From IMG/VR virus record IMGVR_UViG_3300020576_002947, positions 64,001 to 128,000 of that record: a stretch of DNA of 64,000 nt, one strand, 5' to 3'. The stretch's first letter is position 1. The number at the start of each line of letters is the position of its first letter. Origin of the DNA: a virus. Taxonomy: Duplodnaviria; Caudoviricetes. A program made the translations under genes and the position numbers. The notes under the pieces were generated by a model. The model worked only from the letters and a program-made list of their open reading frames with translations. It was not told the origin of the DNA and did not search any database. Positions 2 through 56,741 of the stretch are shown here, piece after piece.

Positions 2-1312
2 GATAACTCCATTGACGCTAAAGCTACTGAAATTAGAATTGGTCTTCAATCACATAAACTATCCGTTGTTGACAACGGAATGGGTATGACAACTGACCAA
101 CTAAGTACTGCCCTTGATATTGGATACAGTTCCAAGAAAGACTGTATTGGACGATACGGGGTAGGTATGAAGATTACTTCATTACGAATAGCTGATAACT
201 ATACTATTCAAACTATAAATGACAACAACCTTTGTTATACTACAGGGATATGTTCATCAGAGATGAGGCCTGAGATCATAACTGGAAATACTTCAAAGGT
301 TAATGGTACTTCAATTGTTCTTAATTTAAAAAAGAACATGTATAAAAAGAGATGGATGCGAGACGTGTTTGAAACACTATCGTTAATTTATTCTCCCGTA
401 CTAGCTACAGGAGAAGTAAAGATTCATCTCAATGCAAGAACGTTAGAACCTACAACGTTTCCTGTAGATCCATTCTTTACTGCAAGTTTTAAATCACTTG
501 TAGTAACTGCATTCGTATCTGATAACTTTGTTAAGTCTGATAGTTATCTGTATCGTGGAACATATGTTTACCTAATCGGTAAGAGATGTTTAACTACTGG
601 TACTGACTATCTTATTGAAGATCTTACACTTAAGAAGTACAATTATGATGATCTTAGAGTTATGGTAGGGATAATCCCTGGGCCTGAAATTAGTGCTAGT
701 ACTAACAAGTCTGGTTTCATTATTGAAACAGATCGAGAAGAGTACTCAGAATTCTTAAGCAAGGTCTCAGAAGAGATTACCCAAACCTATATCAAGATTA
801 AGGAAGAGCGAGAGAAAGAAGTTAAGGATAAGAAGGTTGAGCAAGCCTTGAAACAGATGAGCAAGCTTCTTAGTAAAACTCTTCAAGAACTTAATGAATC
901 ATTGGAACTCTTTAAGGAAGGTTCTTACTACACTGAACGAGAGGAGAAGGAAGTCAATCCTGAACCTAAGAAACAGGATGCTGAGGATCGTAAGGAAAGA
1001 GAAGACAAGGGCTCAGGCCGAAGTGTCAAGCTTGAACTAGCAAAAGCACCTTTAGGTGAAAACAATAGATGTTTCCAGATCGAAAGAGTTCCAGAAACAA
1101 ACTTGTTTAAAGTTATCTTGAACACTGATCATGCTTACTTCCAAAAGATCATTGAGGATCATGATACAGTAAATATGCCAAACTTTATGATTGGCATGGC
1201 TCCTAATATTCTTACAGAGGTTAGTTTCTATGAAACAGACCATACTGCTGACGAATTCAAGGACCGAACCAGCCATATGCAATCTAAATTGTCAGGCTTG
1301 ATGGAAAAGTAA
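2..1312 (+). CDS. GHKL (HSP90/MORC-like) ATPase, 5'-truncated by the window edge
   Basis: The frame is open from nt 2: DNSIDA (motif I), DNGMGM (motif II), GRYGVGMK (motif III), NGTSI (motif IV). A charged coiled-coil C-terminal region follows. Confidence 0.85.
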   Translation, partial: DNSIDAKATEIRIGLQSHKLSVVDNGMGMTTDQLSTALDIGYSSKKDCIGRYGVGMKITSLRIADNYTIQTINDNNLCYTTGICSSEMRPEIITGNTSKVNGTSIVLNLKKNMYKKRWMRDVFETLSLIYSPVLATGEVKIHLNARTLEPTTFPVDPFFTASFKSLVVTAFVSDNFVKSDSYLYRGTYVYLIGKRCLTTGTDYLIEDLTLKKYNYDDLRVMVGIIPGPEISASTNKSGFIIETDREEYSEFLSKVSEEITQTYIKIKEEREKEVKDKKVEQALKQMSKLLSKTLQELNESLELFKEGSYYTEREEKEVNPEPKKQDAEDRKEREDKGSGRSVKLELAKAPLGENNRCFQIERVPETNLFKVILNTDHAYFQKIIEDHDTVNMPNFMIGMAPNILTEVSFYETDHTADEFKDRTSHMQSKLSGLMEK

Positions 1313-2134
1313 ATGTCAACTCGAGAACTTGTAGTAATTAGTATTCATGGTATAGGCTATAAAGCCAAGCCAGGTTTTTCAAACTATTTAATATCAGGTA
1401 TCAGAAAGTCATTCCCCCACTTAACTTCATACGAGTTATTGTGGGGGACAGAACTAGATTCAGTACAAGACTTGTTCATTCAAGACGTACACAAATCAGG
1501 TACTTACTTTAGGGGTACTAAAGCACTACTAACTCGAGTTATTTCAGATGCTTTAGCTTATCAGCCTTATAGCTGTGAAGGAGAAAACCTAAGCTTTGCT
1601 GGTTTGAGTAACAACTCCATTTATGGATCTATACACCACCAGCTAGCCAAACTGATATATTCAATCAGTTTGATTCATCAGGACTTTGATCTAGTTCTAA
1701 TAGGACATTCATTAGGTACAATTATTGTTAATAACTTTGTCTGGGATTGTCTTCATGAATCTTCTGTAGGATGTTTTGCATTCAAACCATCAGAAGAAGT
1801 AAAGACAGTCATTAAAGATAATCTTACTAACATTATTAATTTAGGTTCTCCTTATAGTTACTGGGGATTACGTCATTATCATAATGACTTTCTTCCTGTT
1901 AACTATGATAGGAAGTTTACTATATCAAACTTCTATTTTCCTTCAGATATTGTAGCAGCTCCGATAAGCCCTCTTCCAAACCATAACCTGGTAAAGGATG
2001 AGGAGCTATATATGAGACATCCGCTTGATCTATTTTATTCATCACACTTAAGATACTTTAAATCCTCTCATTTAGTTGGTAGGATTAGGGAACATCTTAA
2101 TCTGTACGGTCGATCTTGCTATGTACAAACTTGA
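1313..2134 (+). CDS. alpha/beta-hydrolase fold protein (lipase/esterase-like)
   Basis: IHGIG oxyanion loop, GHSLG nucleophile elbow, LGSP, candidate Asp (SDIV) and His (SSHLRY). Confidence 0.8.
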   Translation: MSTRELVVISIHGIGYKAKPGFSNYLISGIRKSFPHLTSYELLWGTELDSVQDLFIQDVHKSGTYFRGTKALLTRVISDALAYQPYSCEGENLSFAGLSNNSIYGSIHHQLAKLIYSISLIHQDFDLVLIGHSLGTIIVNNFVWDCLHESSVGCFAFKPSEEVKTVIKDNLTNIINLGSPYSYWGLRHYHNDFLPVNYDRKFTISNFYFPSDIVAAPISPLPNHNLVKDEELYMRHPLDLFYSSHLRYFKSSHLVGRIREHLNLYGRSCYVQT

Positions 2135-3200
2135 AGAAATCGAAGAGCTTAGGGATTTAGGACTTTTAACTATTATCCCAAATCCAAATAATAAGTATCT
2201 ATGGCTTTTAAACTATACTGACAAGGCTCAGTTTGAGAAAGCTTGGTACGATTATCCTAACATTGTGAACTTTAGGGGAATGGTTATAGACTGGCGTACG
2301 ATGTCAGTAGTAGCTAGACCATTTCCCAAGTTCTTTAACTATGAGGAGTATCACAAAGATGATATTCCAAACACCAGAGAAATTGAAGTTACAATGAAAG
2401 TAGACGGTAGTCTGCTTATTGTGTTTCAATTTGAAGGAGTATTTATGGCTTGTACTAGAGGATCATGGAGTTCATGGCAATCTTTACAAGGGATAAAGTT
2501 ATTCAATGAAAGACTATCGTATGAGAACTTACCCTCATTCAGACCAGACTGTACTTATTTGTTTGAGTACATAGGACCTGAAAATATGATAGTAGTTAGA
2601 TATGATAAAGAGAATATCATATTCCTAGCTGAGATGTATAATAATTTCGGTTATCAGTCAGCTAAGAAATCAATTGAAGGATTTGACTCTGTAGAAAGAA
2701 TCAATGTATTCGGTGATATGCTTGGTCAAAGTCTGTATAGAAAACTAAAAGATCAGAACCTCAGAAATGAGGAAGGTTTTGTAGTTAGAGATATTGATAC
2801 TGACTGGCGTTGTAAGATTAAGTTTGAGGACTATATCTTCTACCATAAAACTGTTTCAGGTCTTAACCGTAAACGAGTATGGGAAGCCTTGTGTACTAAT
2901 AAAATGATTGATCTCATTAAGGCAATACCTGATGAGCTATATCCAATAGTACATCAATGGGAAGAAGAACTTCTTAAAGCTTTTGATGAGAAAGCAACAT
3001 TAGTAGAAGAGGCTTGGAATAACTCTAAGCACTTAGAAGATCAAAAGGAGTTTGCATTGTTCATACTTGAACACTATAAACCTCTTTCCTCTATGCTATT
3101 TGCTAAGAAATCTGGAAGAGACTACTCAGAGATTATCTGGGACGGTCTTAAACCAGTCTTCATTGACCCTCAAACAGAGATTAACAATGCAAAGTCCTGA
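2121..3200 (+). CDS. T4 Rnl1-family RNA ligase
   Basis: RG...ARPFPKFFN, KVDGS adenylylation motif I, LFEY, EGFVV, CKIKFEDY. Start placed at ATG 2121. Confidence 0.9.
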   Translation: MYKLEEIEELRDLGLLTIIPNPNNKYLWLLNYTDKAQFEKAWYDYPNIVNFRGMVIDWRTMSVVARPFPKFFNYEEYHKDDIPNTREIEVTMKVDGSLLIVFQFEGVFMACTRGSWSSWQSLQGIKLFNERLSYENLPSFRPDCTYLFEYIGPENMIVVRYDKENIIFLAEMYNNFGYQSAKKSIEGFDSVERINVFGDMLGQSLYRKLKDQNLRNEEGFVVRDIDTDWRCKIKFEDYIFYHKTVSGLNRKRVWEALCTNKMIDLIKAIPDELYPIVHQWEEELLKAFDEKATLVEEAWNNSKHLEDQKEFALFILEHYKPLSSMLFAKKSGRDYSEIIWDGLKPVFIDPQTEINNAKS

Positions 3201-3483
3201 TATCAATTTAAATTATAGTCTTTCTTATAAGTCTTTAGAGTTTTCCTATGTTAACTCTTCTCCTTGGAGTAGTTTCTACTTCGATAAAAGCTCTTATAAC
3301 CTATCATATACTGTTACTAAGGAGAACAACAAGTTTGCACTTCTTATTAACGATACTCCTAAAACTGGTTACTTGTTAAGTTTCAAGTGGTCATCTAACT
3401 ATAGATATGGTTCTTATAGTGTTGACTATCTACAAAAAGGCGATAAACCTTTATTGAACCTTACTATTAACCATAAGTTCTAA
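3187..3483 (+). CDS. hypothetical beta-strand-rich protein
   Basis: ATG 3187 overlaps the ligase end. Alternating aromatic/polar strands and a C-terminal Phe. Confidence 0.55.
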   Translation: MQSPDINLNYSLSYKSLEFSYVNSSPWSSFYFDKSSYNLSYTVTKENNKFALLINDTPKTGYLLSFKWSSNYRYGSYSVDYLQKGDKPLLNLTINHKF

Positions 3484-35391: not shown

Positions 35392-37575
35392 TTACTTTGT
35401 TAGTATCTTCACAGATCTGAGTTTTGGTGTAAGTGTGTTTGATTGGTTTGTTCTTAACTCAAACTTATAATCAATAGTAGTTGTATTAACTAAGTCTGTA
35501 ATGCTAGAATTGAATCCTGAGTACTTCACACTTAAATTAGGTTGATTACTTAATTTAGAGCCAATAAAACCGTCAATAATATCAGACGAATTTTTATTTA
35601 AAGCGATTTTGTTAGGATAGCCTGTGTCTTTCCAAGCCCAGTACTTAAAGGACTTTGGTAAATTAAAACCAAGGTCGAATTCTGATACTGGATCAAAGGT
35701 GCCTGTCCCAACAATATCTGTTACTTCATAAAGTCTTTTAAACTCTGTGTCTAAGATGTTTGGATAAAGAGTAAGCTGTAAATACTTTTCAGTTGTAGAG
35801 TTAGCATCATTAGCAATAGCTGGTAGCTCAGGGCAGTAGAAGTACAACTCGAAAGTATTCCAGCCCTTGTTTATCATAAAGGACCAATTGGTGCCTACAC
35901 TTGCGCCAGATTGTGAGCTTCCGTCTGTATAAAGGGTAAATGGACTTTGTGAAGAACAGACCCTAATATCATTAATATATACAGAGAAAATTCCATAGGA
36001 CAGTCCTAGCTGCTGAAATGTTCTTGTACTAGGAGTTCGATGTCCCTGTAAAAACCAATACTTACCAAAATCAATAACAGAATCTTTATTAGCAAAAAAT
36101 TTATATTGGATTTTATATATGTAATTCTCTCTTGCAGCAGATGATTGCCCGTTGTGAAGAGGAAGGATTGATAAGCTTGTGTATTGAAATTCAGAGTCTT
36201 GCTCACCAATAAACAACTGGTTGTCTTTTGTTAGTGAGGTATGCTCATCACCATAAGGCACTAACTGAACTTCGACACTCTCTGAAGAAGTAGACAACTG
36301 ATCAACACTAGATATCGTTTCCCAGCAGACTAAACTCCCTGCATCTTTAAATAGGCCAGGGTGTAAATCAGGGTAGAAGCTTCCTTCATCTGTGGGGATC
36401 TTTTTGATCGTTGAGATTTCGACTTGATCTCTTCCTATTGTAAGAGTACCTTCTCGGGAGTTTGAGATATTGTCAAAGGTGTTTGTGTAATAGTAAAGTC
36501 CATTAGGTTCTAATGACGCCACTGTGATCGGATACTCTGTGGTCTCCGGTGTTGTATTAACTGTCCAGGCATCAGGTTTAACCTTTACCCACGCACCTGA
36601 GTCTATCTTTACATATGGAATCACATATGTTCCTTGTGGTACATCAGCTTCATAAGATACTTTATAAGAACTGAATTTACTTGAGGGTGTAAAAGAAGTG
36701 CTTACAACTAAGGATTCATCATTATATCTAAGTGCAACAAGTTCAATACTTTCTGTTCCAAAAACGCTATTTAAGGTATCTTCGACAGGAGATAACTCTA
36801 CAAGCATCTTTGTAGCTTGCTGAATAAGAACAGGGTAAGATCCCTTTATCTTTGTAACTGCATTTACTACAGAGTGCCAGTTTCCTTCTCTTAGGAGCTG
36901 GATCTTTATATGAGTATTTCCAACAGGATTAATAACTATCTCGGTAACATTAGTTTCTTTGATATCTATCGTAGCTTTGATCTTTGAATCTTTGCCACTA
37001 GCAAGGAATTTAGCTCCTGTGAAAACATTATTCCTTACCCCAAAAACAGTACAATTTTCAAGATTAATATAATAATTATTAAAATCAAGGGCTTCTGTAT
37101 GAACTAAAGAATAGGGAATATACGCAGCCTGCAGCTCAGAATCTATGATAGAGTTTGTCTCTTCAAGATCAAGCCAGTTTGTATTATAGAATGTTTGAAG
37201 ATGGGCCCATGAGGCATATCCTTGAGAGATAGATGTTAGAAACTCACTTGTCTTTCTATACTGCTCAACTCTCTTCATACTAAGAGACATCTTATTAAGA
37301 ATTAGCTGGTAGCTCTGATTAGTATTCTTAGTTAGATTATTATAAGCTGTAATAGCAATATTTGTATCCAACTCTATGGAAGTAACATAATCTTTTAACT
37401 TTTTATTATCTATGTTCTCATAAGGGACTGCTTTATATAAACTAGCACTAGGCTTACCTAAGATGATCTTAGCATCTAGTGTCGTATTGAAAGTAACAAA
37501 GTCCCCTGAAAGAAAAGATCTTTGAGCTCTCTTATCAAGTATGTATTCTTTTTGAGCTGCCGTAATTAATGACAT
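35392..37575 (-). CDS. virion structural protein (baseplate paralogue family A)
   Basis: Coiled coil, IDSELQAAYIP, C-terminal TPKLRSV. Confidence 0.65.
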   Translation of the reverse strand: MSLITAAQKEYILDKRAQRSFLSGDFVTFNTTLDAKIILGKPSASLYKAVPYENIDNKKLKDYVTSIELDTNIAITAYNNLTKNTNQSYQLILNKMSLSMKRVEQYRKTSEFLTSISQGYASWAHLQTFYNTNWLDLEETNSIIDSELQAAYIPYSLVHTEALDFNNYYINLENCTVFGVRNNVFTGAKFLASGKDSKIKATIDIKETNVTEIVINPVGNTHIKIQLLREGNWHSVVNAVTKIKGSYPVLIQQATKMLVELSPVEDTLNSVFGTESIELVALRYNDESLVVSTSFTPSSKFSSYKVSYEADVPQGTYVIPYVKIDSGAWVKVKPDAWTVNTTPETTEYPITVASLEPNGLYYYTNTFDNISNSREGTLTIGRDQVEISTIKKIPTDEGSFYPDLHPGLFKDAGSLVCWETISSVDQLSTSSESVEVQLVPYGDEHTSLTKDNQLFIGEQDSEFQYTSLSILPLHNGQSSAARENYIYKIQYKFFANKDSVIDFGKYWFLQGHRTPSTRTFQQLGLSYGIFSVYINDIRVCSSQSPFTLYTDGSSQSGASVGTNWSFMINKGWNTFELYFYCPELPAIANDANSTTEKYLQLTLYPNILDTEFKRLYEVTDIVGTGTFDPVSEFDLGFNLPKSFKYWAWKDTGYPNKIALNKNSSDIIDGFIGSKLSNQPNLSVKYSGFNSSITDLVNTTTIDYKFELRTNQSNTLTPKLRSVKILTK

Positions 37576-39464
37576 TATTCTTTAAATCCTTTCAATGCAT
37601 AATAAGCTACTGATGGAGTTTGATGGAGATCGCTAGCGTTCCCTTTGATCTCAATCTTCATCATAATAGAGTTAATCTGCTTATCTAACTTAACTGAGTT
37701 ATCGAAGTCCCCACCCTTAGATGGTTCAATAGATTGCCATGTAGCGCCATTGTCTATAGAGAAGGAATAAGTAACCCAACCTTGTGTACCCCAGTCTGTA
37801 GGAACATGGAACTCAGATACAAGTGCAACTCTATTTACAGCCTTACCAAACTTTAAGACTTTAGAGACATATACGCCTGCACTAGAGTACTGAACTTTCT
37901 CTAAAGCAATAGTTTTAATTGCTACTGTAGATCTATATCCATTAAATAAATCATAGCCTTGTCTTTGATCAGTGACTGTAAACGTTCTGTTGAAAGATCC
38001 AATACTTATTAAGTTCTCTACTAAACCTGAACCAACTCCAAGATTAATTAGGAACTGCATATAAGGATTAGCTACACTAATCTGAGAAGCTGCTTGGGTA
38101 GCAATTGGTGCTAACCCTGAAAGAATAGTTCCTTTATTCTCAGAGCCTATTACAGCACCCTCAGCAGGATAACTTCCTTTCTCTGGGTCGAAGGTAGGCG
38201 TAATATTCTCAGTCTTTTGAGTAGCTACAGTAGGTCTTGTCTTTGCAAACAGTTCTACTCTTTTCGGAATGTCTTCATGATCTACACTCTTGAATAGACC
38301 ATAGTTTCTTTCTGATCTTCGATGGACGTTAACCCATACGAAAGGATGACCAAAGAGAACATCCTCTGAAGCACTGCCTTCAAAATGTAGAAAGACTGAC
38401 TCTACTCTTCGACTGCTGTTAATTGGTATGAACTTACCTGATGAGCTTATCTTTGTCTCAAACAAGTTAAACTTAGTCGCTGTTGTCTCACCAGGATTTA
38501 ATACAAAGTCCTTGGCTATGGTAACAGGCTTCTCTAAACCTTCTAACTTAACAGTAGCTAGCTTTACTTTAGAAACATTCTTTTTATGCCTAATAAAAGG
38601 ATCGAGTCTCACACCTGAAAGAGTCATAGGCTCATTCATAGTTAAAGTAACTGCAAACTCTGCTGAACTACTAAGGTTAACTCTAACCTCTGAACTAGCA
38701 ATTGGCTGGATGAACTCTGCGATAGAGTATCCCTTCTTATCAGCACCTTCATCTAACTGAAGAGCTTCAGGCCAGTAAAGATTCACATTCCAGTCAAAGT
38801 TATTAGTAACATTTAGGACATCAATCTCTGAACCTGAGATGTCTGAAACATAGGCTTTACCTGACTGCTTAGCTTTTTGTTTAGAATAAATAAAGTTTCT
38901 TTCTACTTCAAAATGAGTTGTCTCTTTGTTATCGAATAGATGCAGAAGATTGGAGGAGTCATTAGTGTCAAACTCAGCCTTAGGCTCAGTGTTCTCCCCT
39001 CCAGGTGTCACTCTTAAAGCGAGAAGATTACAACCTGGGAATGTCTTTGTCTTCTTCATTACCTCTTCGTTTAACGTAGGAGTAAAACTGGTGACAGATA
39101 GATAGCTAGTAGGTGTTAAAGTTAGAAGACCTCTGTCAGTATTAACTAAAGCTGTTGTGGCTTTGTCTGTGTTATCTCTGGTGGCAAACGTATCAGAAAC
39201 CCAGACAAAGTCTGTAATCTCATTAGCTTGATTGTATATTACGTTGCTGACTTTTGAGGATAACTCCTTTACACCAAACTCTAAAATATTAAGAGCAGCG
39301 TCTAAATTATTATATTTATTAACAATACTAGATTTTACAGTGTTAATATTATCGCCTAGGCTTGTTATCGCAAAAGTGACCGTATCAATATGGTCACCAG
39401 CATAGTCAACAAGGTTAGATGTAACAGCAAAATCTGATATCTGAGGTAAAGAAATTTTATCCAT
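37575..39464 (-). CDS. virion structural protein (baseplate paralogue family A)
   Basis: Coiled coil, VNTDRGLLTLTP, SIDNGATW Asp-box, C-terminal TPSVAYYAL. Confidence 0.65.
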   Translation of the reverse strand: MDKISLPQISDFAVTSNLVDYAGDHIDTVTFAITSLGDNINTVKSSIVNKYNNLDAALNILEFGVKELSSKVSNVIYNQANEITDFVWVSDTFATRDNTDKATTALVNTDRGLLTLTPTSYLSVTSFTPTLNEEVMKKTKTFPGCNLLALRVTPGGENTEPKAEFDTNDSSNLLHLFDNKETTHFEVERNFIYSKQKAKQSGKAYVSDISGSEIDVLNVTNNFDWNVNLYWPEALQLDEGADKKGYSIAEFIQPIASSEVRVNLSSSAEFAVTLTMNEPMTLSGVRLDPFIRHKKNVSKVKLATVKLEGLEKPVTIAKDFVLNPGETTATKFNLFETKISSSGKFIPINSSRRVESVFLHFEGSASEDVLFGHPFVWVNVHRRSERNYGLFKSVDHEDIPKRVELFAKTRPTVATQKTENITPTFDPEKGSYPAEGAVIGSENKGTILSGLAPIATQAASQISVANPYMQFLINLGVGSGLVENLISIGSFNRTFTVTDQRQGYDLFNGYRSTVAIKTIALEKVQYSSAGVYVSKVLKFGKAVNRVALVSEFHVPTDWGTQGWVTYSFSIDNGATWQSIEPSKGGDFDNSVKLDKQINSIMMKIEIKGNASDLHQTPSVAYYALKGFKE

Positions 39465-47856: not shown

Positions 47857-49462
47857 ACTTAATTAAAACCTCTTTTGAGAGTGAAGTGGAGCTATTAGCT
47901 ATTACCTTAGAGTCTGTCGTTGATGAGACACTTATCTTATCTGATAAAGCAAATATGTTAGATACCTCTCTAGTCGTAGTTACAGAAATAGAGTTATTAT
48001 ACTCAATTCTACTTACATCAGGGATTATAAACTTAGAATCTGAATCACACTTTAATTGGATAGTCTGAGATTTAGGATAACCATAGCCCGCTATTCCACT
48101 AGTATAAAGTACAGGAGCATTTTCTGCACCTAAATCCTTTACACCAAGCAAGAGCACACTCCCTGAATGTACTTTAGCATTATCCACAGGATTGCTTACA
48201 TCTATCAGAACAGAAGCTGATACTGAATCACTAATTGCCCAAACCCTAGTAGTCTGTGTTGGTGCTAAGCTAATTAGCATCTCACCCTTTAAGTCTGTTA
48301 AAGTAGATGACGGATAAGCATATGTAATGAGTGAGGAGCTAAAACTACTAGTACCTGCAGAATTCGTTAGAAGTATCGTTACATCTTTCTGTGGTATAGG
48401 TAACAGGTTCTTATAAAGTACCTGAACTCTAACACTAACTTCCTCTTCCCATCCAGAGCAGATAGAAGTCTTTGAACTAGTAATGTTTATAGTGTTAGTT
48501 GTTCTACTATCAGCCAAGCTACCAGATGTAGAATGGTGGAATAGATAGCCTGTTCTAAAACTGTTTGGCAGGAGTGGATTAAAGTTTGCTCGACCAGCGG
48601 CTATGCTAACTTCTGGCATAGCTAAACTAAGAGAGTTAGCACTCTCCCATTCGACCCTAACAGTATCGCTAGCAGCAGAAGTAAAGACTAGAATTTGATT
48701 TGACTGAGTACCTAATGTCCATGAGAAAGGTACGTAGTATTCAGCTCTAACCCATTGACCATCTTCTCCTGAGAACGGAGATGTAATAGTACCAGAGGAT
48801 AGTCCTGAGTAGCTTTGTGAGCTTGAGCCTCTTACCAGAGTAGTGTTGTATCTATGATAGTAAGTAGGGTAGACATAGCCCTCAGTGATTCTCAGAAGCT
48901 CGCTAATAAGAAGAGTGGAGCTTGTCTGAGATATATCGAAGAATAGAGAGGATGCTGGTGTTGTTTCTGACTTAACCTGAACAGTTAGGCCTGAAACATA
49001 ATAGCTGTAACTATCTAGATCTTGTACTCTCGGTACTGGGTAAAGATCCCAATACAATCCTCTAGCACCTAGAATTGAAGTACCAGAGCTTAGTGTAGAT
49101 TCCCATATGCCTGAAGATACTTCAGTCCATGATAGATTTTGAGCCGCTCTTAGATAATTAAGTACAGGAACATACTGGTAAGCTGACCCAAACACCTCTA
49201 GATCGGAGTTGTATCCATTTAAAGATTCCGTTAAGGTTACTGTGTTTGATCCTGATACAAGTGCTGAGGTTAGGGTAGACGCTGAGATAAAGAGCCTTTT
49301 CTCAATACCATCTAAGTCATAGTAATGGCCGGGCTTTAAAGTTAGATTCCACTCACAGTTAGGACCTAGAATAACTCTTGGCTCGAGTGAGGACTCTTGT
49401 GAAATGCCAATACTAGGGTATCCTAAACTAGTTAAATCACTTGTTGTACGATTTCTATTCAT
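47846..49462 (-). CDS. virion structural protein with Ig-like C-terminal region
   Basis: S/T-rich, FNPL..GYLF, TDLKGE Ig-like turn. Confidence 0.55.
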   Translation of the reverse strand: MNRNRTTSDLTSLGYPSIGISQESSLEPRVILGPNCEWNLTLKPGHYYDLDGIEKRLFISASTLTSALVSGSNTVTLTESLNGYNSDLEVFGSAYQYVPVLNYLRAAQNLSWTEVSSGIWESTLSSGTSILGARGLYWDLYPVPRVQDLDSYSYYVSGLTVQVKSETTPASSLFFDISQTSSTLLISELLRITEGYVYPTYYHRYNTTLVRGSSSQSYSGLSSGTITSPFSGEDGQWVRAEYYVPFSWTLGTQSNQILVFTSAASDTVRVEWESANSLSLAMPEVSIAAGRANFNPLLPNSFRTGYLFHHSTSGSLADSRTTNTINITSSKTSICSGWEEEVSVRVQVLYKNLLPIPQKDVTILLTNSAGTSSFSSSLITYAYPSSTLTDLKGEMLISLAPTQTTRVWAISDSVSASVLIDVSNPVDNAKVHSGSVLLLGVKDLGAENAPVLYTSGIAGYGYPKSQTIQLKCDSDSKFIIPDVSRIEYNNSISVTTTREVSNIFALSDKISVSSTTDSKVIANSSTSLSKEVLIKYGQ

Positions 49463-50955
49463 TAGAAGTATGCAAATTCGGGATTATTAGCTTCGTTATT
49501 ATCCCATTGTTCGTGTAGAACAGGCCTATTTATAGTAGAGCCTACTACAGTTGATTGGTGAAGAAATCTATTATAGAGGATTGGATTATTAAAAGCTGGG
49601 ACGTTAGTAGTCGTAAACATTTGACTTAGAGTTGTTATTGAACCGTACTCTCCCTTTGCATCTAGCGTAGTATAAATATCTTCTTCAGTATCAACTCTAA
49701 TCCAAGACGATGTTCCAAACGTGTTTGCAAAGTAAGAACCGTCTCTATAGTTTAAACCTGTATATGACCTAGTAAACTTAGGTAAACTCAGAACCTCATC
49801 AGTGCTACTAAGAGTCGTACTAGATGCTACCGAACTTGCTGAGTACGTTGCTGTAGTGAAAAGCAAACTCATTTTAGAGCCTAGTCTAGTTGATTCTGGG
49901 TAAAGCTGAAGAATCCTCTCCCAATCTTCTAAGCTATACTTACTCAAATTTAACTCAGGAGTAATGACTTTTAAGAACCACAAAGGATTTTCGTCTAGTG
50001 AGTAATAGTGTTCTGTAGATACTTTATTATCTATTTTTAAGGTTTTATTAAGTAAACAACTTTTTAGATAGTCAGACTGATAGTAGATTGCATAAGTACC
50101 TTCTTGCATAGTAAGAGTTGAGTTCTGACTACTATAAATCAGGTCTGTTGTTCTTATGACCTTTCCCTCTCCTACTGAGTCTACTACATAAAAATAAGAG
50201 TAGTCTGTAATAGGATTGGATGCCATCTCACTACTCAAATCAATTACACCACTAACAGTTCTCTTTACAGTACTAAACAAGTCTGCATTTTTCATTACTA
50301 CTCTATTATCGTAGATAGTAACGTAGGGCTTTAATGGGTATGTTGAGGAGCCTTCCCAATCCACTCTGCTTGGAAGCCAGTGTTCTGTATTCATCACTTC
50401 AACCTCTGAAATAACATCATTAATAGATAGTGGAATATTTAAGTTTTCACATGTTAGTTTAAAAGGCTTAAACCAGTCAGTGAGATATAAAGTGCCCCAT
50501 GACAACCAAGAGTTAACTGACTTCACCAGAGCATGTTCAAGCTTAACTAAATTATTGTTTTGTACCCACTGAGGGATGATGTACGGGCTCAGTGTATTTA
50601 AGTTATAGGGTATTACAGTAGGTTTAGTAGGCAATACTTTAGTCTGCCATCTAATACGAACCCCCATAGCTGGAACAGGTATAGGATACTCAACATCGCA
50701 AAGATAAATTATTTCATTAGAGTCATCTGAAACTACTAACCATCTAACCACACCCTCAACATAGCTAAAATTAGTAGCTTCTACAGAACCTGTAACAGTA
50801 AAAGTAAGGGGAGCTTCAGAAAGGATGAAACCAGATACATCTGCATATGTATGAGTTGATATTGGTTGATACCCCGGATTGATAAGGAAAGCTTTAAACC
50901 CTTGCTCCCAATCAGTGATAGGCCCTCCACTGTAGCTAGTATAGGTAAGGTGCAT
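49462..50955 (-). CDS. virion structural protein (paralogue of 54386-55630)
   Basis: C-terminal QWDNNEANNPEFAYF. Confidence 0.6.
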   Translation of the reverse strand: MHLTYTSYSGGPITDWEQGFKAFLINPGYQPISTHTYADVSGFILSEAPLTFTVTGSVEATNFSYVEGVVRWLVVSDDSNEIIYLCDVEYPIPVPAMGVRIRWQTKVLPTKPTVIPYNLNTLSPYIIPQWVQNNNLVKLEHALVKSVNSWLSWGTLYLTDWFKPFKLTCENLNIPLSINDVISEVEVMNTEHWLPSRVDWEGSSTYPLKPYVTIYDNRVVMKNADLFSTVKRTVSGVIDLSSEMASNPITDYSYFYVVDSVGEGKVIRTTDLIYSSQNSTLTMQEGTYAIYYQSDYLKSCLLNKTLKIDNKVSTEHYYSLDENPLWFLKVITPELNLSKYSLEDWERILQLYPESTRLGSKMSLLFTTATYSASSVASSTTLSSTDEVLSLPKFTRSYTGLNYRDGSYFANTFGTSSWIRVDTEEDIYTTLDAKGEYGSITTLSQMFTTTNVPAFNNPILYNRFLHQSTVVGSTINRPVLHEQWDNNEANNPEFAYF

Positions 50956-51015: not shown

Positions 51016-53589
51016 TTATTTTGCAGCACGCATTAGCTCTAAAAGTTGTTCTCGATTATTAGTAATCAGACCTTCAGTAGTTGTGATCTGACCGGCGATA
51101 CTTGAAGCAGTACGAACAGCAGATCTAACTACTACTAGTGGATCAATAACCATGATTTGGTCGTAAGGCACTACTTCTAGTGTCTCAATATTATACGTCA
51201 TCTTAGGATCTACGGCACCTAGGAGGCTGATTAAAAGATTTTGAATCTCATCAGTACTCCACCCGTAGTTGGTAAGGATTTTATACACAGGTGTGCAAAG
51301 GGCTTCATACAAGCTCTTCCTCATCTCGTGTGGAATATCCTCAAGAGTTGGGTCACTATAAGCTGTGATACCAGCAAGAGCCAGCATTATACCACCACCA
51401 GGAAGAATTCCATGCTGTAGAGCAGCTCTGGTAGCATTTACAGCATCTTCGTAGCGATATCGCTTTTCAACTAACTCAACAAAGTTATTTGAGCCAATCT
51501 TAATTTCTGCTGCTTTACCAGTAAGTCTTGATATTCTCTTCCTATAATAGTCAGGGCTAGTGTCTAGTTTACTAGTCAGATAGTCAATTCTTGCTTGGTA
51601 GCCTTCTCCACCATTGCCAGAAATAAAAGTAGTCTTATTCTCTAGAATGATAACCTTTTTGGCTTGACCGCACATAGCTGGCTTAATCTGAGACACATCT
51701 GTCATTAGGTCAGGTGTAATACTTACACCACCCAAGAAAGCAGCCATATCTTTCATAGACTCTCTTCGCTCATCGCTATAGTCAGGAGCCCTAACAGTAG
51801 CAATCTTTAATCTGTTGTTGAGCTTGTTCTTAGTTAAGAACTCCAAAGCCTCTCCAAACACTCCAGCAGTAACAAGAATGATTGGTCTTTCAGTACCGAA
51901 ATGGCTTCTAATAGTCTCAAGCATTTTAATTAGGTGCTGAGACTTCTCTAGTGATTGATCCATCGTAACAACAATTGGATCATCATACTCTACAGACATC
52001 TTATTGATATCAGTAATGAAGAAGGGACTCTCATAACCATTATCAAATGAAAATCCGTGAGTGTACTCTATTGTAGTATTTGCAATGTCACTCTGCCCTA
52101 AGGTAATAGCTGCATCAGGACCGACTTCTCTAAAAGCCTCTCCTACAATCTGACCTACAGTCTCATCATTACCAGCAATTTTTGCAACAGCTTCTACCAT
52201 TGGCGAAGCTAGATCAACAGGAATAGCATTGCTTTCTAGATAGTTAATGACCATTTCTGTAAATCTTTGAAGATCTACTTGTCTCTTATACCTATCCTTG
52301 TTGATAAAAGGAAGCATTGACTTGATTAACTCATAAGTCAAAAGAGTAGTGGTTGTCGTATTGTGTGTAAATACAAAATTATCTGTTACGTAAAGATTAT
52401 CAGGATTGCTTACAGAGATACACTGCATTTCTGTAAATCGACCAGTAGGGACAATTCTCAAAATAGAGTTTCCATACTTATCTCCCTTTAACTCTGTAAC
52501 ACGATAAATTGTTGTTTCAGAGTAAGAAGCTCCAGGTTTCCTTACATATTCGTAGCAAGAAACAGTCTTTCCTAGGCTTCTCATTAGCTCAACAACATCT
52601 TGTGCTAGTTGGTAACTAACTGTACCGTACTCTAACCGTCCTCTTGAATTTATATGCCCATCTGTATCAGCTAATCCTCTTAAGAGTTCTTCCCGATCTT
52701 CTATGCTCGCATAGAGATACTGTGTAGGAATAAACTTAGTTTCACTTTTTGTACCAAGTAAACCTATTTCATCAACAAGACGATGCATCGTCTTACCATC
52801 TGGAGTAATACCTCTTAACTTTACTCTGTGATAATGTTTATTCTCATTATAAACAGAGTAAGCCTCAATCCCATCAGGAAGCGGCAAGCTATCAATAATA
52901 TGTTCCTGGTCTTCGGCTAGTGATAATTCTATACTACCTGTACCACTTAAACTACCATCTCCTATTAATAGACCTACTAGGTAAGGGTGTAAAGTTTGGT
53001 TACTAGTGTGAAAGTCTACCCACGATTGAGGAGTAAAAAAGCGTGTGCCATCCCTATGCTCATTAGAGTGCATTTCATCTAATATTCGTTTTGTAGTTAA
53101 AGTTTTGACTTTACCCCAACTAGTAGTTACTGTCCATAGATGATCTTCACAGCACTCTACTACACGGTCACCTCCTAGGTACACCTCGTAAATTTCTTTT
53201 TTACCTTTAGGGTAGATTCCCTCAACTTCCTGAATCGTACCATTGGCCCCACATACCACATCACCTACTTTTAAAGATCCCATCGTTACCCATCCTTGCG
53301 GGGTAAGAATTTTACTATAGAGAGGCTGTGGTCCATCGCCAGCAAGCTCATTAGCTTTAATAGCCGCTTGCTTAACTAGCTGAGCACCCATGTTCTCCGC
53401 TTCATCTAGCAGAACAATATTCCGTGCTACTGTTACTCCGTCTTTTGTGGTAAGGGGGAATTGGTCCCCATAAAGTACTGAACCTCCACCAGGCCCCATA
53501 GTGCATGAAACGATGTCAGATAACTTCTTAGCGCCTTCAATAAGTGGATTGCGTGCAAGCTCACCATGCCGAATATCTTTTCCAGTCAT
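51016..53589 (-). CDS. groEL: chaperonin GroEL precursor containing an intein (533 aa after splicing)
   Basis: TMGPGG, TKDGVTVA, AGDG|intein|TTTTT, FDNGYESPFF, EDAVNATRAA, GILPGGG, VIDP. Confidence 0.93.
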   Translation of the reverse strand: MTGKDIRHGELARNPLIEGAKKLSDIVSCTMGPGGGSVLYGDQFPLTTKDGVTVARNIVLLDEAENMGAQLVKQAAIKANELAGDGPQPLYSKILTPQGWVTMGSLKVGDVVCGANGTIQEVEGIYPKGKKEIYEVYLGGDRVVECCEDHLWTVTTSWGKVKTLTTKRILDEMHSNEHRDGTRFFTPQSWVDFHTSNQTLHPYLVGLLIGDGSLSGTGSIELSLAEDQEHIIDSLPLPDGIEAYSVYNENKHYHRVKLRGITPDGKTMHRLVDEIGLLGTKSETKFIPTQYLYASIEDREELLRGLADTDGHINSRGRLEYGTVSYQLAQDVVELMRSLGKTVSCYEYVRKPGASYSETTIYRVTELKGDKYGNSILRIVPTGRFTEMQCISVSNPDNLYVTDNFVFTHNTTTTTLLTYELIKSMLPFINKDRYKRQVDLQRFTEMVINYLESNAIPVDLASPMVEAVAKIAGNDETVGQIVGEAFREVGPDAAITLGQSDIANTTIEYTHGFSFDNGYESPFFITDINKMSVEYDDPIVVTMDQSLEKSQHLIKMLETIRSHFGTERPIILVTAGVFGEALEFLTKNKLNNRLKIATVRAPDYSDERRESMKDMAAFLGGVSITPDLMTDVSQIKPAMCGQAKKVIILENKTTFISGNGGEGYQARIDYLTSKLDTSPDYYRKRISRLTGKAAEIKIGSNNFVELVEKRYRYEDAVNATRAALQHGILPGGGIMLALAGITAYSDPTLEDIPHEMRKSLYEALCTPVYKILTNYGWSTDEIQNLLISLLGAVDPKMTYNIETLEVVPYDQIMVIDPLVVVRSAVRTASSIAGQITTTEGLITNNREQLLELMRAAK
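52360..53331 (-). mobile_element. class 3 intein (Pro1) with LAGLIDADG homing endonuclease, 324 aa
   Basis: Block A PQPLYSKILTPQGW, block B CCEDHLWTV, blocks C/E LVGLLIGDG and LLRGLADTDG, block F MQCISV, block G FTHN with Thr+1. Confidence 0.92.
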
Positions 53590-53674: not shown

Positions 53675-53926
53675 CTACTCTTCTGGCTCAGGCTTGGAAA
53701 GTTTACTAATATGCTTCTTAAAGGTATTGAAACTCATGTAGTTTCCAATAACTGCGAGCACGACGGCAATGATTAGATACTTCAGATACTCTAAAATGGT
53801 ATCTGAACTCTCAGGAAACAGGTTCTTCGTTAAGAATAAAGCCGAGACGGTAACGATGAACACACCTACCATCTTCAACAGCTTATCGACCTTAAATTCA
53901 ATTTTTTGTTCGCTCATAATAATCAC
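53675..53926 (-). CDS. small two-TM membrane protein (holin candidate)
   Basis: Two hydrophobic helices and a charged C-tail. Confidence 0.55.
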   Translation of the reverse strand: MIIMSEQKIEFKVDKLLKMVGVFIVTVSALFLTKNLFPESSDTILEYLKYLIIAVVLAVIGNYMSFNTFKKHISKLSKPEPEE

Positions 53927-54465
53927 CTACTGGCGGTATATAAAACTAAGCAGTCACACACAGTCTCTCTCAAGTACTTAGGACAACTCTCTATCTGTTT
54001 ATAACTAGAGGGTAGGATCATTAGCACACTTGTCATTATTTGAGTTTTATCTAAGTTTCCATTACCAAAAACTTCTTTCTTAGCTGTTTTAGGTTGTATT
54101 GGAATAAATAAGGTAATCTTTTTATTAAGCAAAAGACTGTAGACTAGTCCTTGGCAGAAGCTTAATGCTTTCACAGCAGAGAAACTTTGAGACCCTACAG
54201 GAGTCTCTGTGATGATAGTAGTTATATCGTGCTTATTGATTACTTCATCAATTGTTTGAAGGAAATTAACAGCAGTGGTTTCGAGATTCTTGCTATCTCC
54301 TTTCATTGACCCCCAGTCAACGAGATTATAGTCGTTAACTACAGCCCACCCAAAACACGATATGCTTGGGTCTAGAACGAGTATATTAGAAGAATGCAAA
54401 CTCTGAGGGATCTTGGATATCTGCGTCCCAGAGGGTTGCGGTTTTCGCACGGTTTTGGTTTTCAA
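53923..54465 (-). CDS. ruvC: RuvC-like Holliday junction resolvase
   Basis: LVLDPSISCFGWAV, IITETP, P..AKKEVFGNGNLDK, C-terminal ETVCDC. AGGAG SD before a TTG start. Confidence 0.8.
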   Translation of the reverse strand: MKTKTVRKPQPSGTQISKIPQSLHSSNILVLDPSISCFGWAVVNDYNLVDWGSMKGDSKNLETTAVNFLQTIDEVINKHDITTIITETPVGSQSFSAVKALSFCQGLVYSLLLNKKITLFIPIQPKTAKKEVFGNGNLDKTQIMTSVLMILPSSYKQIESCPKYLRETVCDCLVLYTASR

Positions 54466-55630
54466 TATTTACTCCTGAGTACTGCACAGCACTAGGCATT
54501 TCTTGCTCAGAAAGCTGCCAAACACCTGTATCAGAAAACACCTCACATAGAGCAGACTTTCCTTGGAAAGAGCCCCTATCCCAACCGAACTCTCCAATAG
54601 TAGCTTCTTTGATTGTGTTATCTATTGTAATGTCATCAGTTGAAAAGTAGGTTAGAGATAAATACTTTGGATGATTGATACAAAAGTTTTGTGCTGAGAC
54701 TGACGGGGTATAAGAAGACGCTAAATTAAAAGCACCGGCTAGAATAGCTTCGTAGTATTGGGAACTTGGTTGAAACTCTAGCTTTAGTATAGGGTCTAGT
54801 CGTAAGCTAAGCTGATAAGAAGTTTCAGGTTCAAGCCTATGAAGATTGTAAATCAATCCAAGACTGTCTACGCTTGTCCACATTTTTTGCCTTTCAGCAG
54901 TTACAGTAACACTATTGTTAACTAGTATATCAATATATCTTTGCTGATAACCTGAGCGTTTATACATAAACTCAAATATACCTGACACACCTAAGCTTCC
55001 AGCTCTCATAACATTTGAGGATATAGTTACAAAGTTATTAGTATGTCCAGGGTGCCTAGCAAAAACAAAACTTTCTCCACTCCATAATCCGTCAGGCAAG
55101 GTTGGGATAGTGGAGTCATCTATAATAGCAGATGCATAACCAACTGAGAAAAGAAAGATTCTATCATTATCCCAAACCCAAGCAGTCTCAGGAGTTACTA
55201 AAGACTCATAGTAGTTCTTATTTCTACAAGTTAGAAACGTGTTGTTTACAGATAGTTTTACAGTGGTAGGGTAGTCTTGGTAGTTAACGACCCATCCAAA
55301 ACTTTCCTCATCAAGATTATATCCTAACCCAATATTAAAATATTCTCCTAGTATAAAAGACTTCATGTTCTGAGTCTGATTTGCTAGATTAACTAATAAA
55401 GAGTTTAATAAATCAGGACCTAAAAAGCTTGTACCAGCATTAGTTATTACTGTGCTAGGTAATGTTGTTAGGGATGACACCGACCCTTGATCTAGCGTAA
55501 TAGGCGTTGTAGGATCATAAAAAACAGCATCCTCAAAAGCACCTTCTACTCGATTGATTGAAAACCATCGAGGTAAGTAACCGAAACTAGGCACCCAGTT
55601 AGGTGCGAGTATGTTGCCAAAATCTAACAA
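54386..55630 (-). CDS. baseplate wedge-like structural protein
   Basis: Follows baseplate J. VDSLGLIYNLHRLEPET..L..R motif and C-terminal LWDADIQDPSEFAFF. Confidence 0.6.
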   Translation of the reverse strand: MLDFGNILAPNWVPSFGYLPRWFSINRVEGAFEDAVFYDPTTPITLDQGSVSSLTTLPSTVITNAGTSFLGPDLLNSLLVNLANQTQNMKSFILGEYFNIGLGYNLDEESFGWVVNYQDYPTTVKLSVNNTFLTCRNKNYYESLVTPETAWVWDNDRIFLFSVGYASAIIDDSTIPTLPDGLWSGESFVFARHPGHTNNFVTISSNVMRAGSLGVSGIFEFMYKRSGYQQRYIDILVNNSVTVTAERQKMWTSVDSLGLIYNLHRLEPETSYQLSLRLDPILKLEFQPSSQYYEAILAGAFNLASSYTPSVSAQNFCINHPKYLSLTYFSTDDITIDNTIKEATIGEFGWDRGSFQGKSALCEVFSDTGVWQLSEQEMPSAVQYSGVNIENQNRAKTATLWDADIQDPSEFAFF

Positions 55631-55631
55631 A

Positions 55632-56741
55632 TTATTGAACTGTTATTGTGGAAGGGAAGACTTTATCTCCAATATTAAGTTGAACAGAGTCCTGATTCCC
55701 TACTCTGACTCCGTCAAGGTAACAATCAAGCCTTGTTGACAGAACGCTAGGACTTACAGCATATATTCTACTAGTAGCTTCTGCGAAGTTAATTGTAGCT
55801 GTTCCAGTGCCGTCTTCGATTGGCAACTGCTCGATAAAGCTTGTAAGTATCTGCTTAATTTGATTCCTTATACCTTCTCTCTGATTTTCAGTATTAGGTT
55901 TAAACTGTAAGGAGACATCAAATTTAACGTATCTAATTACTGGTGAAATAGCTTTAGCAGAAAGTCCAATAAAACTGTAAGTATCTAGCATCTCTTGTGC
56001 AATAGATCTTAAATTCTCTGAGTCAGCAACTGAGTGAGGTACTATAATACAATCGAAAGTACCATAACCTCTTCTCATCGGAAGTACAATAGTATCCTGA
56101 ATGCCAGGAATCTGGCGAAGTAAAGCAACTACAACATCCTTGTTAAATACAGCTCTGTGTCTCAAAGCTTGAATAATACGCTCTCTTAAAGAATCATCAG
56201 ACTCTAAATAAGAACCTGAGCCTAGTGGAAGTAAGTTGGTTACTGTAATAACGTTTGGTGCGTAGTTTGTAGAATCGATATAGCCTGCAGGAATGTTATA
56301 AGAGTCGCCTACTTCGTCGGCAAGTACATGTGCCGTTTCATACTCACCTGCTGCAAGTGTTAGTGCTTCTGTAGTATAGTAAGCAAGTTGAGGATTACTC
56401 TTACTCCAAACTCTAGTCTGAGCTGGGATAATAACCTGAGATCCACCAAGGTTTGTAAATCTTACTGATCTCGCTGATCCAATAGTGGTTGATCTAATTG
56501 CAGGCTTACGACGAATACCTAGATTCCTAGCCCATAGGTCTAAACCTTGACCAGAAGCTGTATGAACATCCATTTGAAGGGACAACTCTTCAAGTTGAAG
56601 TGCAAGTTTATGAGTCTCAGAGGCGAATATTTTTACTAGAGTACCAAGAACTGTGTCGTCAATTGATCCAGTTATATCAGTAGCCTCTACAACCTTCTGC
56701 CAAAAACTGTTCTCAATATCTTTATATGAGGGAGCTACCAT
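55632..56741 (-). CDS. baseplate J / Mu gp47-like protein
   Basis: TASGQGLDLWARNLGIRRKPA, G..YNIPAG, ESDDSLRERI, RGYGTFD. Confidence 0.88.
   Translation of the reverse strand: MVAPSYKDIENSFWQKVVEATDITGSIDDTVLGTLVKIFASETHKLALQLEELSLQMDVHTASGQGLDLWARNLGIRRKPAIRSTTIGSARSVRFTNLGGSQVIIPAQTRVWSKSNPQLAYYTTEALTLAAGEYETAHVLADEVGDSYNIPAGYIDSTNYAPNVITVTNLLPLGSGSYLESDDSLRERIIQALRHRAVFNKDVVVALLRQIPGIQDTIVLPMRRGYGTFDCIIVPHSVADSENLRSIAQEMLDTYSFIGLSAKAISPVIRYVKFDVSLQFKPNTENQREGIRNQIKQILTSFIEQLPIEDGTGTATINFAEATSRIYAVSPSVLSTRLDCYLDGVRVGNQDSVQLNIGDKVFPSTITVQ

Follow-up and report, generated by a model that had tools for sequence, protein, structure and literature searches.

A predicted class-3 intein with a putative LAGLIDADG homing endonuclease in the phosphate-binding loop of a jumbo-phage GroEL

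Can a chaperonin carry an intein within the loop that binds the phosphates of ATP, and how would such an intein have reached that place and persisted there? The question is raised by a GroEL gene in the window analyzed here, a stretch of 64,000 nucleotides (bases 64001-128000) of the IMG/VR virus record IMGVR_UViG_3300020576_002947 (Duplodnaviria; Caudoviricetes), a metagenome-assembled jumbo-phage record of 239,691 bp with an estimated completeness of 94%. Surveys of intein hosts are dominated by ATPases of replication, recombination, repair and packaging. An earlier note, made from the letters of the window alone, had described the gene as a phage GroEL interrupted in its GDGTTT motif by a Pro1 class-3 intein with a LAGLIDADG endonuclease, and the motifs, family conservation, predicted fold and relatives reported below all support that description. 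In the reading that we consider highly probable, a full-length class-3 intein splits the GroEL phosphate loop as GDG/TTT (here and below a slash marks a junction), is removed by protein splicing and owes its spread to LAGLIDADG homing.

The interrupted GroEL and the motifs of its insert

The open reading frame (ORF) of the precursor encodes 857 residues in a continuous frame without internal stop codons (Table 1), and Pfam finds Cpn60_TCP1 in it in two separate stretches, the second from residue 411, the Cpn60 score of the precursor being 101.7 bits against a cut-off of 34.3. The junctions read NELAGDG/PQPLYSKILTP at the start of the insert and FVFTHN/TTTTTLL at its end, and the limits given in the earlier note for the 324 residues between AGDG and TTTTT (53331-52360) are exact to the base. 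Excision of the insert restores GDGTTT and leaves a GroEL of 533 residues, as had been proposed, with a C-extein that aligns with solved GroELs. In the comparison with T. thermophilus GroEL from the PDB (2.4e-66) the aligned residues are 89-527, a range that covers the (E)DA(L/V)NATRAA...GGG motif, and the C-extein also corresponds to PHROG 5725, 'chaperonin groEL' (6.9e-81), at profile positions 90-537 of 540, while in tblastn the N-extein gives its own, separate match to phage GroELs. Since the C-extein's alignment starts at E. coli Thr89, the insert falls between Gly88 and Thr89 within the GDGTTT that binds phosphate. Base composition gives no foreign signal (GC content of 0.386 in the intein and 0.409 in the exteins), and the extein is, as far as its sequence tells, still a sound GroEL (group I chaperonin).

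Class-3 inteins are defined by the lack of a nucleophile at residue 1, by the residues Trp (B12), Cys (F4) and Thr (G5), and by a Thr or Ser in position +1 (PMC2807308). The conservation of these residues was counted in an alignment of 120 homologous inteins, the window copy included. In block A, Pro1 and Gln2 are invariant (120/120) and Pro3 is found in 119. In block B, His is present in all 120 and Trp in 117, the other three having Phe, while the Cys at B6 is found in 119 and the position B7 is occupied by Cys in 92 and by Ser in 28; a further cysteine, Cys27, is conserved in at least 90%. The block-F Cys304 is invariant and is aligned with the F4 Cys that was engineered into gp41-1_WCT (PDB 6riz), and in block G the Thr, His, Asn and Thr+1 are each found in 120 of 120. 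In precursor numbering these residues are His150 and Trp152 (HLW), Cys390 (MQC), Thr-His-Asn 408-410 and Thr411. Judged by these motifs the GroEL insert has every sequence feature of a class-3 intein; the Pro1, the Trp-Cys-Thr triplet (HLW, QC, THN), the two LAGLIDADG motifs and the Thr+1 listed in the earlier note are all present.

Regarding the endonuclease, Pfam matches LAGLIDADG_3 (5.6e-9, precursor residues 301-356) and Hom_end (9.8e-6, residues 287-348). The Asp of the first LAGLIDADG motif and the Thr-Asp-Gly of the second are each kept in at least 90% of the 120 relatives, and the acidic residue is intact in both motifs of the window copy. This copy deviates from the family at three of 82 highly conserved columns, none of the three being catalytic or within the LAGLIDADG motifs. 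An AlphaFold (AF2) model built from the alignment of 120 inteins has a predicted local distance difference test score (pLDDT) of 91.8 and a predicted template modeling score (pTM) of 0.90, and its best Foldseek matches in the PDB are PI-SceI (E 1e-15), the VMA inteins of Thermococcus (TliVMA) and Pyrococcus, and PI-PfuI. When the parts are considered separately, the splicing lobes match the class-3 MchDnaB1 and Msm DnaB inteins and the inserted domain matches I-DmoI; by sequence, the N-terminal lobe resembles MchDnaB1 and gp41-1, the latter also as the engineered WCT variant, and the middle part with the homing endonuclease resembles PI-SceI. Both the motifs and the modeled I-DmoI/PI-SceI core fold are those of a monomeric LAGLIDADG endonuclease with two motifs, as which the domain is accordingly predicted.

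Occurrence, relatives and origin of the GroEL-site intein

The search for intein-bearing Cpn60 proteins proposed in the earlier note shows that the window's gene has many counterparts. All 119 best matches in a set of 5.8 billion proteins are GroELs of 839-930 residues with GDG/PQ...THN/T at the same position, and because 120 of 120 top proteins, the window's own included, have this arrangement at the homologous position, a chance origin of the insert can be dismissed. The annotation of such proteins is plain 'chaperonin GroEL' or lacks a name. In IMG/VR, the exact DNA pattern for GDGPQPLY occurs on 51 contigs, many of them of 100-390 kb, and 51 of 51 are true junctions. A profile search with the N-terminal junction returned 176 clusters (50% identity) at E<=1e-30, and the best 150 of these 176 contain 88 further complete cases, namely 77 of full length, three with a partly deleted endonuclease and eight mini-inteins of 139-164 residues; residue 1 is Pro in 85 of the 88 and Cys in three. 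Clusters at 50% identity that bear the intein thus number approximately 100. No GroEL with an insert was detected in 50,697 GenBank phage records. Among the matches listed from 185,579 prokaryote species (one genome each) there are two short contigs of metagenome-assembled genomes (MAGs) with the intein, of which L005 is plainly phage, with terminase and portal genes, and none of these listed matches is a GroEL intein on a cellular chromosome. The insert is common in metagenomes and therefore represents a family rather than a peculiarity of one phage; this GroEL-intein family is large and is seen in uncultured phages only.

The GroEL-site inteins that start with Cys (P0238, P0239, P0292 and P0275, with CQPLYS... 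or CQDLNS...) retain the block-B His-x-Trp or His-x-Phe and THN, and P0275, the sole Cys1 case in the tree, nests within the Pro1 clade. The Cys1 inteins may be intermediates between class 1 and class 3.

In the literature that could be searched, no paper was found that names GroEL, chaperonin, cpn60, Hsp60 or thermosome as an intein host. Papers on magroviruses and on Staphylococcus jumbo phages mention inteins and GroEL, but apart from each other, and GroEL is absent from the main text of the Novikova 2016 intein survey. The type of intein is known, whereas the host protein and the insertion site appear undescribed, so that the earlier note's proposal of a new insertion site stands as far as it can be checked, even though the site is common in metagenomes. 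The host protein and the site appear new, as does a family of this size and liveliness, and the proposed mechanism is that of known class-3 inteins. The family adds a protein-folding machine as a new class of intein host, with a natural series of full, decaying, mini, Pro1 and Cys1 forms, and its compact class-3 inteins are possible protein-engineering tools for Gly/Thr junctions.

The nearest relatives outside GroEL are inteins of phage helicase, terminase and PhoH-like genes, with 31-37% identity over the full length. These are inserted between the Lys and the Thr of Walker A, as GxGK/AQPLYSKVLTP...THN/T, and the xQPLYSKVLTP of block A is common to Walker-A-site inteins. All matches of the window's intein in phage records are below 60% identity, the best being at 31-37%. 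The position between the Walker-A Lys and Thr is the 'classic' P-loop intein site, occupied for instance by mycobacteriophage TerL1-a (PMC5050341). The classic P-loop inteins (TerL1-a and those of Vibrio phage 1.161.O, Eggerthella phage LE2-3 and Klebsiella phage N1M2) are nearest to the window's intein both by sequence and in the tree, and share with it xQPLYSKVLTP...THN/T and a +1 Thr that binds nucleotide in a Gly-rich phosphate loop. However, their first residue is Ala (rarely Ser) and is preceded by Lys or Arg, whereas the GroEL clade has Pro after Gly, and their target is the fold of P-loop nucleoside triphosphatases, whereas that of the window's intein is the equatorial domain of GroEL.

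Regarding better-known systems, the DnaB intein of mycobacteriophage Bethlehem, the class-3 prototype, is likewise phage-borne, of full length (341 residues, compared with 324 here) and equipped with LAGLIDADG, and shares Pro1, the Trp/Cys/Thr triplet, the terminal Asn and Thr+1; it differs in its host, a DnaB-type helicase, and in having Gln instead of Gly at -1, and is a distant relative (PMC2807308). The DnaBi1 inteins of M. smegmatis and M. chimaera (PDB 6bs8, 6rix, 6riy) have the same class-3 active site and also lie in an ATP-binding loop, and their template modeling (TM) scores against our model, normalized by target, are 0.72-0.80, but they are mini-inteins of bacterial chromosomes without an endonuclease, with Ala1 (MchDnaB1) and Ser+1 (Msm DnaBi1). 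PI-SceI of yeast VMA1 and the archaeal VMA inteins have the same combination of HINT and LAGLIDADG domains and are hosted by the catalytic subunit of an ATPase, but belong to class 1 (Cys1) and have only 13-17% sequence identity. With respect to the host, the phage GroELs of PHROG 5725 (Flavobacterium, Vibrio and Bacteroides phages) are of the same family as the window's extein, with approximately 30-34% identity to it, but those in GenBank are intein-less. GroEL is also encoded by Pseudomonas phages EL and OBP.

The GroEL inteins come out as a single clade in two intein trees, with a Shimodaira-Hasegawa-like (SH-like) support of 100, the Cys1 and MAG cases included. This clade stands among Walker-A-site inteins, with a support of 93 for the sister relationship in the larger tree. 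In many bacterial genomes the same class-3 family occupies Walker-A and PhoH sites, and in some Walker-A relatives the C-extein starts with TTTA or TTL, as in GTGK/TTTARIIA of L032. These sequences and trees are most simply read as a single jump, out of a P-loop site and into the similar Gly-rich loop that GroEL offers, after which the intein would have spread among the groELs of phages. For the route from terminase to Cas4, extein switching by way of nucleotide-binding sites has been proposed (bioRxiv 10.1101/2025.01.02.630785), and the jump to GroEL would match that route. A Walker-A (GxGK/T) lineage has apparently moved in this way to an unrelated fold with a similar Gly-rich phosphate loop and Thr.

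Residue 1 of these inteins tracks the residue at -1 (L005-L084, P0221-P0311): Ala1, rarely Ser1, follows Lys or Arg (GxGK/A, MRGR/A), and Pro1 follows Gly, as GDG/P in GroEL, LPG/P in PhoH-like proteins and also ADG/P, SDG/P and GTG/P. Pro1 was considered as a sign of common descent with the PhoH 'LPG/P' inteins and rejected, since the GroEL and PhoH-LPG Pro1 groups are separate clades; for the same reason the pairing of Gly with Pro1 seems to have arisen more than once. Six metagenomic PhoH-like proteins (P0221, P0234, P0241, P0285, P0300, P0308) have two class-3 inteins each, and the sites combined in such proteins are Walker A GxGK/T, LPG/T and MRGR/T.

The comparison of intein with extein histories, also proposed in the earlier note, shows that the two are decoupled. 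Compared with the window, the inteins have 47-59% identity and the exteins 28-37%, the intein being closer in 119 of 119 comparisons, and intein-less GroELs are equally close to the window's extein (29-36%). Across all 7,140 pairs, intein identity is around 51% throughout, against extein identities of 25-50% (rho = 0.17). In the pair P0064/P0111 the inteins are 96.7% identical and the C-exteins 65.2%, and in P0034/P0070 the inteins have 85% identity and the exteins 53%, whereas P0010/P0011 show the reverse, with 99.6% for the C-extein, 97.7% for the N-extein and only 71% for the intein. The IMG/VR GroELs that are nearest by C-extein similarity have an uninterrupted GDGTTT in 76 of 76 cases, an extein tree of 245 rows needs at least 22 changes of intein presence or absence (71-87 with shuffled labels), and the sampled intein-less allele that comes closest to an intein-bearing one shares 81% identity with it. 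In the family, full, partly deleted and mini forms occur side by side. Decoupled identities, patchy presence and coexisting forms together are what one would expect if the element is spread by homing and subsequently lost again, and the separate evolution of intein and extein, as read from these sequences, indicates homing. The short N-exteins of P0064/P0111 (81.5% identity) are far more alike than their C-exteins, a similarity that may be a co-conversion tract left by homing.

At the DNA level, the joined flanks of 37 distinct intein-bearing alleles read GCN GGN GAY GGN/ACN ACN ACN, with codon positions 1 and 2 fixed and the third free, and intein-less alleles have the same pattern. The universal cpn60 barcode primer H279, GAIIIIGCIGGIGAYGGIACIACIAC, has an annealing site that spans the insertion point. 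This overlap shows how widely the stretch is conserved, and since the primer site is split by the intein, intein-bearing groELs are not amplifiable with H279 and are invisible to amplicon surveys.

Proposed splicing and homing, and alternative explanations

The predicted course of splicing follows the class-3 mechanism that was established with the DnaB intein of mycobacteriophage Bethlehem. In this class, splicing has an absolute need for the block-F Cys and proceeds by way of a branched intermediate at block F. The block-F Cys304 would attack the Gly86-Pro87 bond, assisted by His64 and Trp66 of block B, to form a thioester branch, from which the N-extein would move to the hydroxyl of Thr+1; cyclization of Asn324 would then release the 324-residue intein, and an O-to-N shift would restore GDGTTT in a chaperonin of 533 residues. 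An intact ATP site would be expected in the spliced protein only, and an ATPase-dead precursor is plausible; if splicing proceeds as predicted, this is a natural case of a chaperonin ATP site that is formed only after protein splicing. The freed intein would cut intein-less groELs of co-infecting phages at approximately GCN GGN GAY GGN/ACN ACN ACN, and repair would copy it in.

Several points weigh against this account. Splicing, the block-F branch, the activity and target of the endonuclease and the inactive precursor are all features that we infer from the sequence. Pfam Intein_splicing does not match the GroEL intein, although it matches three other inteins of the same phage, so that the assignment to HINT rests on motifs, relatives and fold. 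The lists of homologs are ranked by score and hence favor similar inteins. All trees are FastTree trees across a deep divergence, and support for the nodes adjoining the GroEL clade varied with the sampling, between 36 and 93. In the extein tree the window's GroEL has a very long branch (1.43 changes per site), and no close intein-less relative of it was found, none being above approximately 36% identity; recent mobility is for these reasons shown for the family and not for the window copy.

The last point leads to the best of the alternatives, that the intein is a fixed passenger which splices while its endonuclease is dead or idle in this phage, so that it is inherited vertically only. The search found no GroEL closely related to that of this phage, whether intein-bearing or intein-less (best extein identity 37%), the partly deleted and mini forms demonstrate endonuclease decay in the family, and the window copy departs at three conserved columns. 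However, these departures lie outside the motifs, both LAGLIDADG motifs and their Asp are intact, the endonuclease domain of the model is confidently folded, and near-identical inteins in diverged GroELs conserve the endonuclease as well as the splicing lobes. A passenger of this kind is possible but improbable.

Somewhat less probable still is a conditional switch, in which oxidation, metal or temperature restrains splicing, for example through a Cys61-Cys304 disulfide, and gates the chaperonin by stage or host state. A redox precedent exists in Msm DnaBi1, a class-3 intein inserted in a P-loop that is reversibly blocked by a disulfide to the block-F Cys (PMC6195587). The gene in the window encodes the phage's only chaperonin and lies among baseplate, tail and virion genes, and Cys27 (at least 90%), Cys60 (119/120) and Cys61 (92/120) are conserved beside Cys304. 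On the other hand, the Cys at B6 is also found in the class-1 gp41-1 intein and may have a structural role, 28 of 120 inteins have Ser at B7, and the patchiness seen among the nearest viral GroELs, 76 of 76 being intein-less, is more in line with a selfish element than with a regulator that the phage needs. The redox role suggested by the 'CC' of block B is a weak idea, and we regard it as unlikely that Cys-dependent splicing serves as a redox, metal or temperature timer for the chaperonin at virion assembly and/or that the endonuclease cuts host or rival groEL for shut-off or competition.

Retention of the insert, in an inactivated or repurposed GroEL or in a decaying pseudogene, could be argued from the missing Intein_splicing match and the unusual divergence of the window's GroEL. 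It is very improbable, given that the splice-junction residues are invariant across 120 diverged sequences, that the ORF is intact with exteins that retain the ATPase motifs and can be aligned over their whole length with solved GroELs, and that 324 residues retained inside GDGTTT would destroy the nucleotide site. That a metagenome assembly joined a GroEL gene to an unrelated intein-bearing gene is barely conceivable, as these in-frame junctions recur on over 150 independent contigs, drawn from several sources, and the frame is continuous.

Genomic context and further inteins of the phage

The intein-bearing gene is the only Cpn60/chaperonin gene in the record and lies within a minus-strand block with baseplate, tail and virion genes (Table 1); the phage GroEL may have a role in folding virion proteins.

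Table 1. Features of the GroEL locus, neighboring genes and further inteins; positions are those of the window unless an L handle is given
Feature	Position	Strand	Details and evidence
GroEL precursor gene (N-extein, intein, C-extein)	51016..53589	-	857 codons and stop
N-extein	53332..53589	-	residues 1-86, ends ...AGDG (Asp = E. coli Asp87)
Class-3 intein (predicted)	52360..53331	-	324 aa, precursor residues 87-410
C-extein	51016..52359	-	residues 411-857 and stop codon; PHROG 5725, PDB GroEL
Block A	53290..53331	-	PQPLYSKILTPQGW; Pro1, not a nucleophile; alignment of 120
Block B	53134..53160	-	VECCEDHLW; Cys60 (B6), Cys61 (B7), His64 (B10), Trp66 (B12)
First LAGLIDADG motif	52948..52986	-	PYLVGLLIGDGSL; precursor residues 202-214; model and PI-SceI match
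Second LAGLIDADG motif	52651..52689	-	ELLRGLADTDGHI; precursor residues 301-313; Pfam
Block F	52387..52434	-	TEMQCISVSNPDNLYV; Cys304 (F4), predicted initiating nucleophile
Block G	52357..52380	-	NFVFTHN/T; Thr322 (G5), His323, Asn324, Thr+1 = first Thr of GDGTTT
Joined insertion site	52348-52359 and 53332-53345	-	GCTGGCGATGGA/ACGACAACCACT
RuvC-like Holliday junction resolvase	53923-54465	-	PHROG 159, 8.9e-19
Baseplate wedge gene	55632-56741	-	PHROG
Virion structural gene	37575-39464	-	PHROG
Intein in ribonucleotide reductase large subunit	L221, ORF 517-3465		982 aa, with LAGLIDADG_3
Intein in family-A DNA polymerase	L222, ORF 88-2964		958-aa ORF
Intein in protein of no assigned family	L220, ORF 10-2433	-	807 aa

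Most large neighboring ORFs have no match in the PHROG search, including those at 49462-50955 (-) and 54386-55630 (-). These two ORFs flank the GroEL region and have similar aromatic C-termini (...PEFAYF and ...PSEFAFF), and with the baseplate wedge gene nearby they may encode fiber or baseplate proteins. The gene of the RuvC-like resolvase lies two genes upstream of the GroEL gene and overlaps the end of ORF 54386-55630 by 80 bases. Outside the window, the same phage record contains at least three more inteins, all of which match Pfam Intein_splicing (Table 1).

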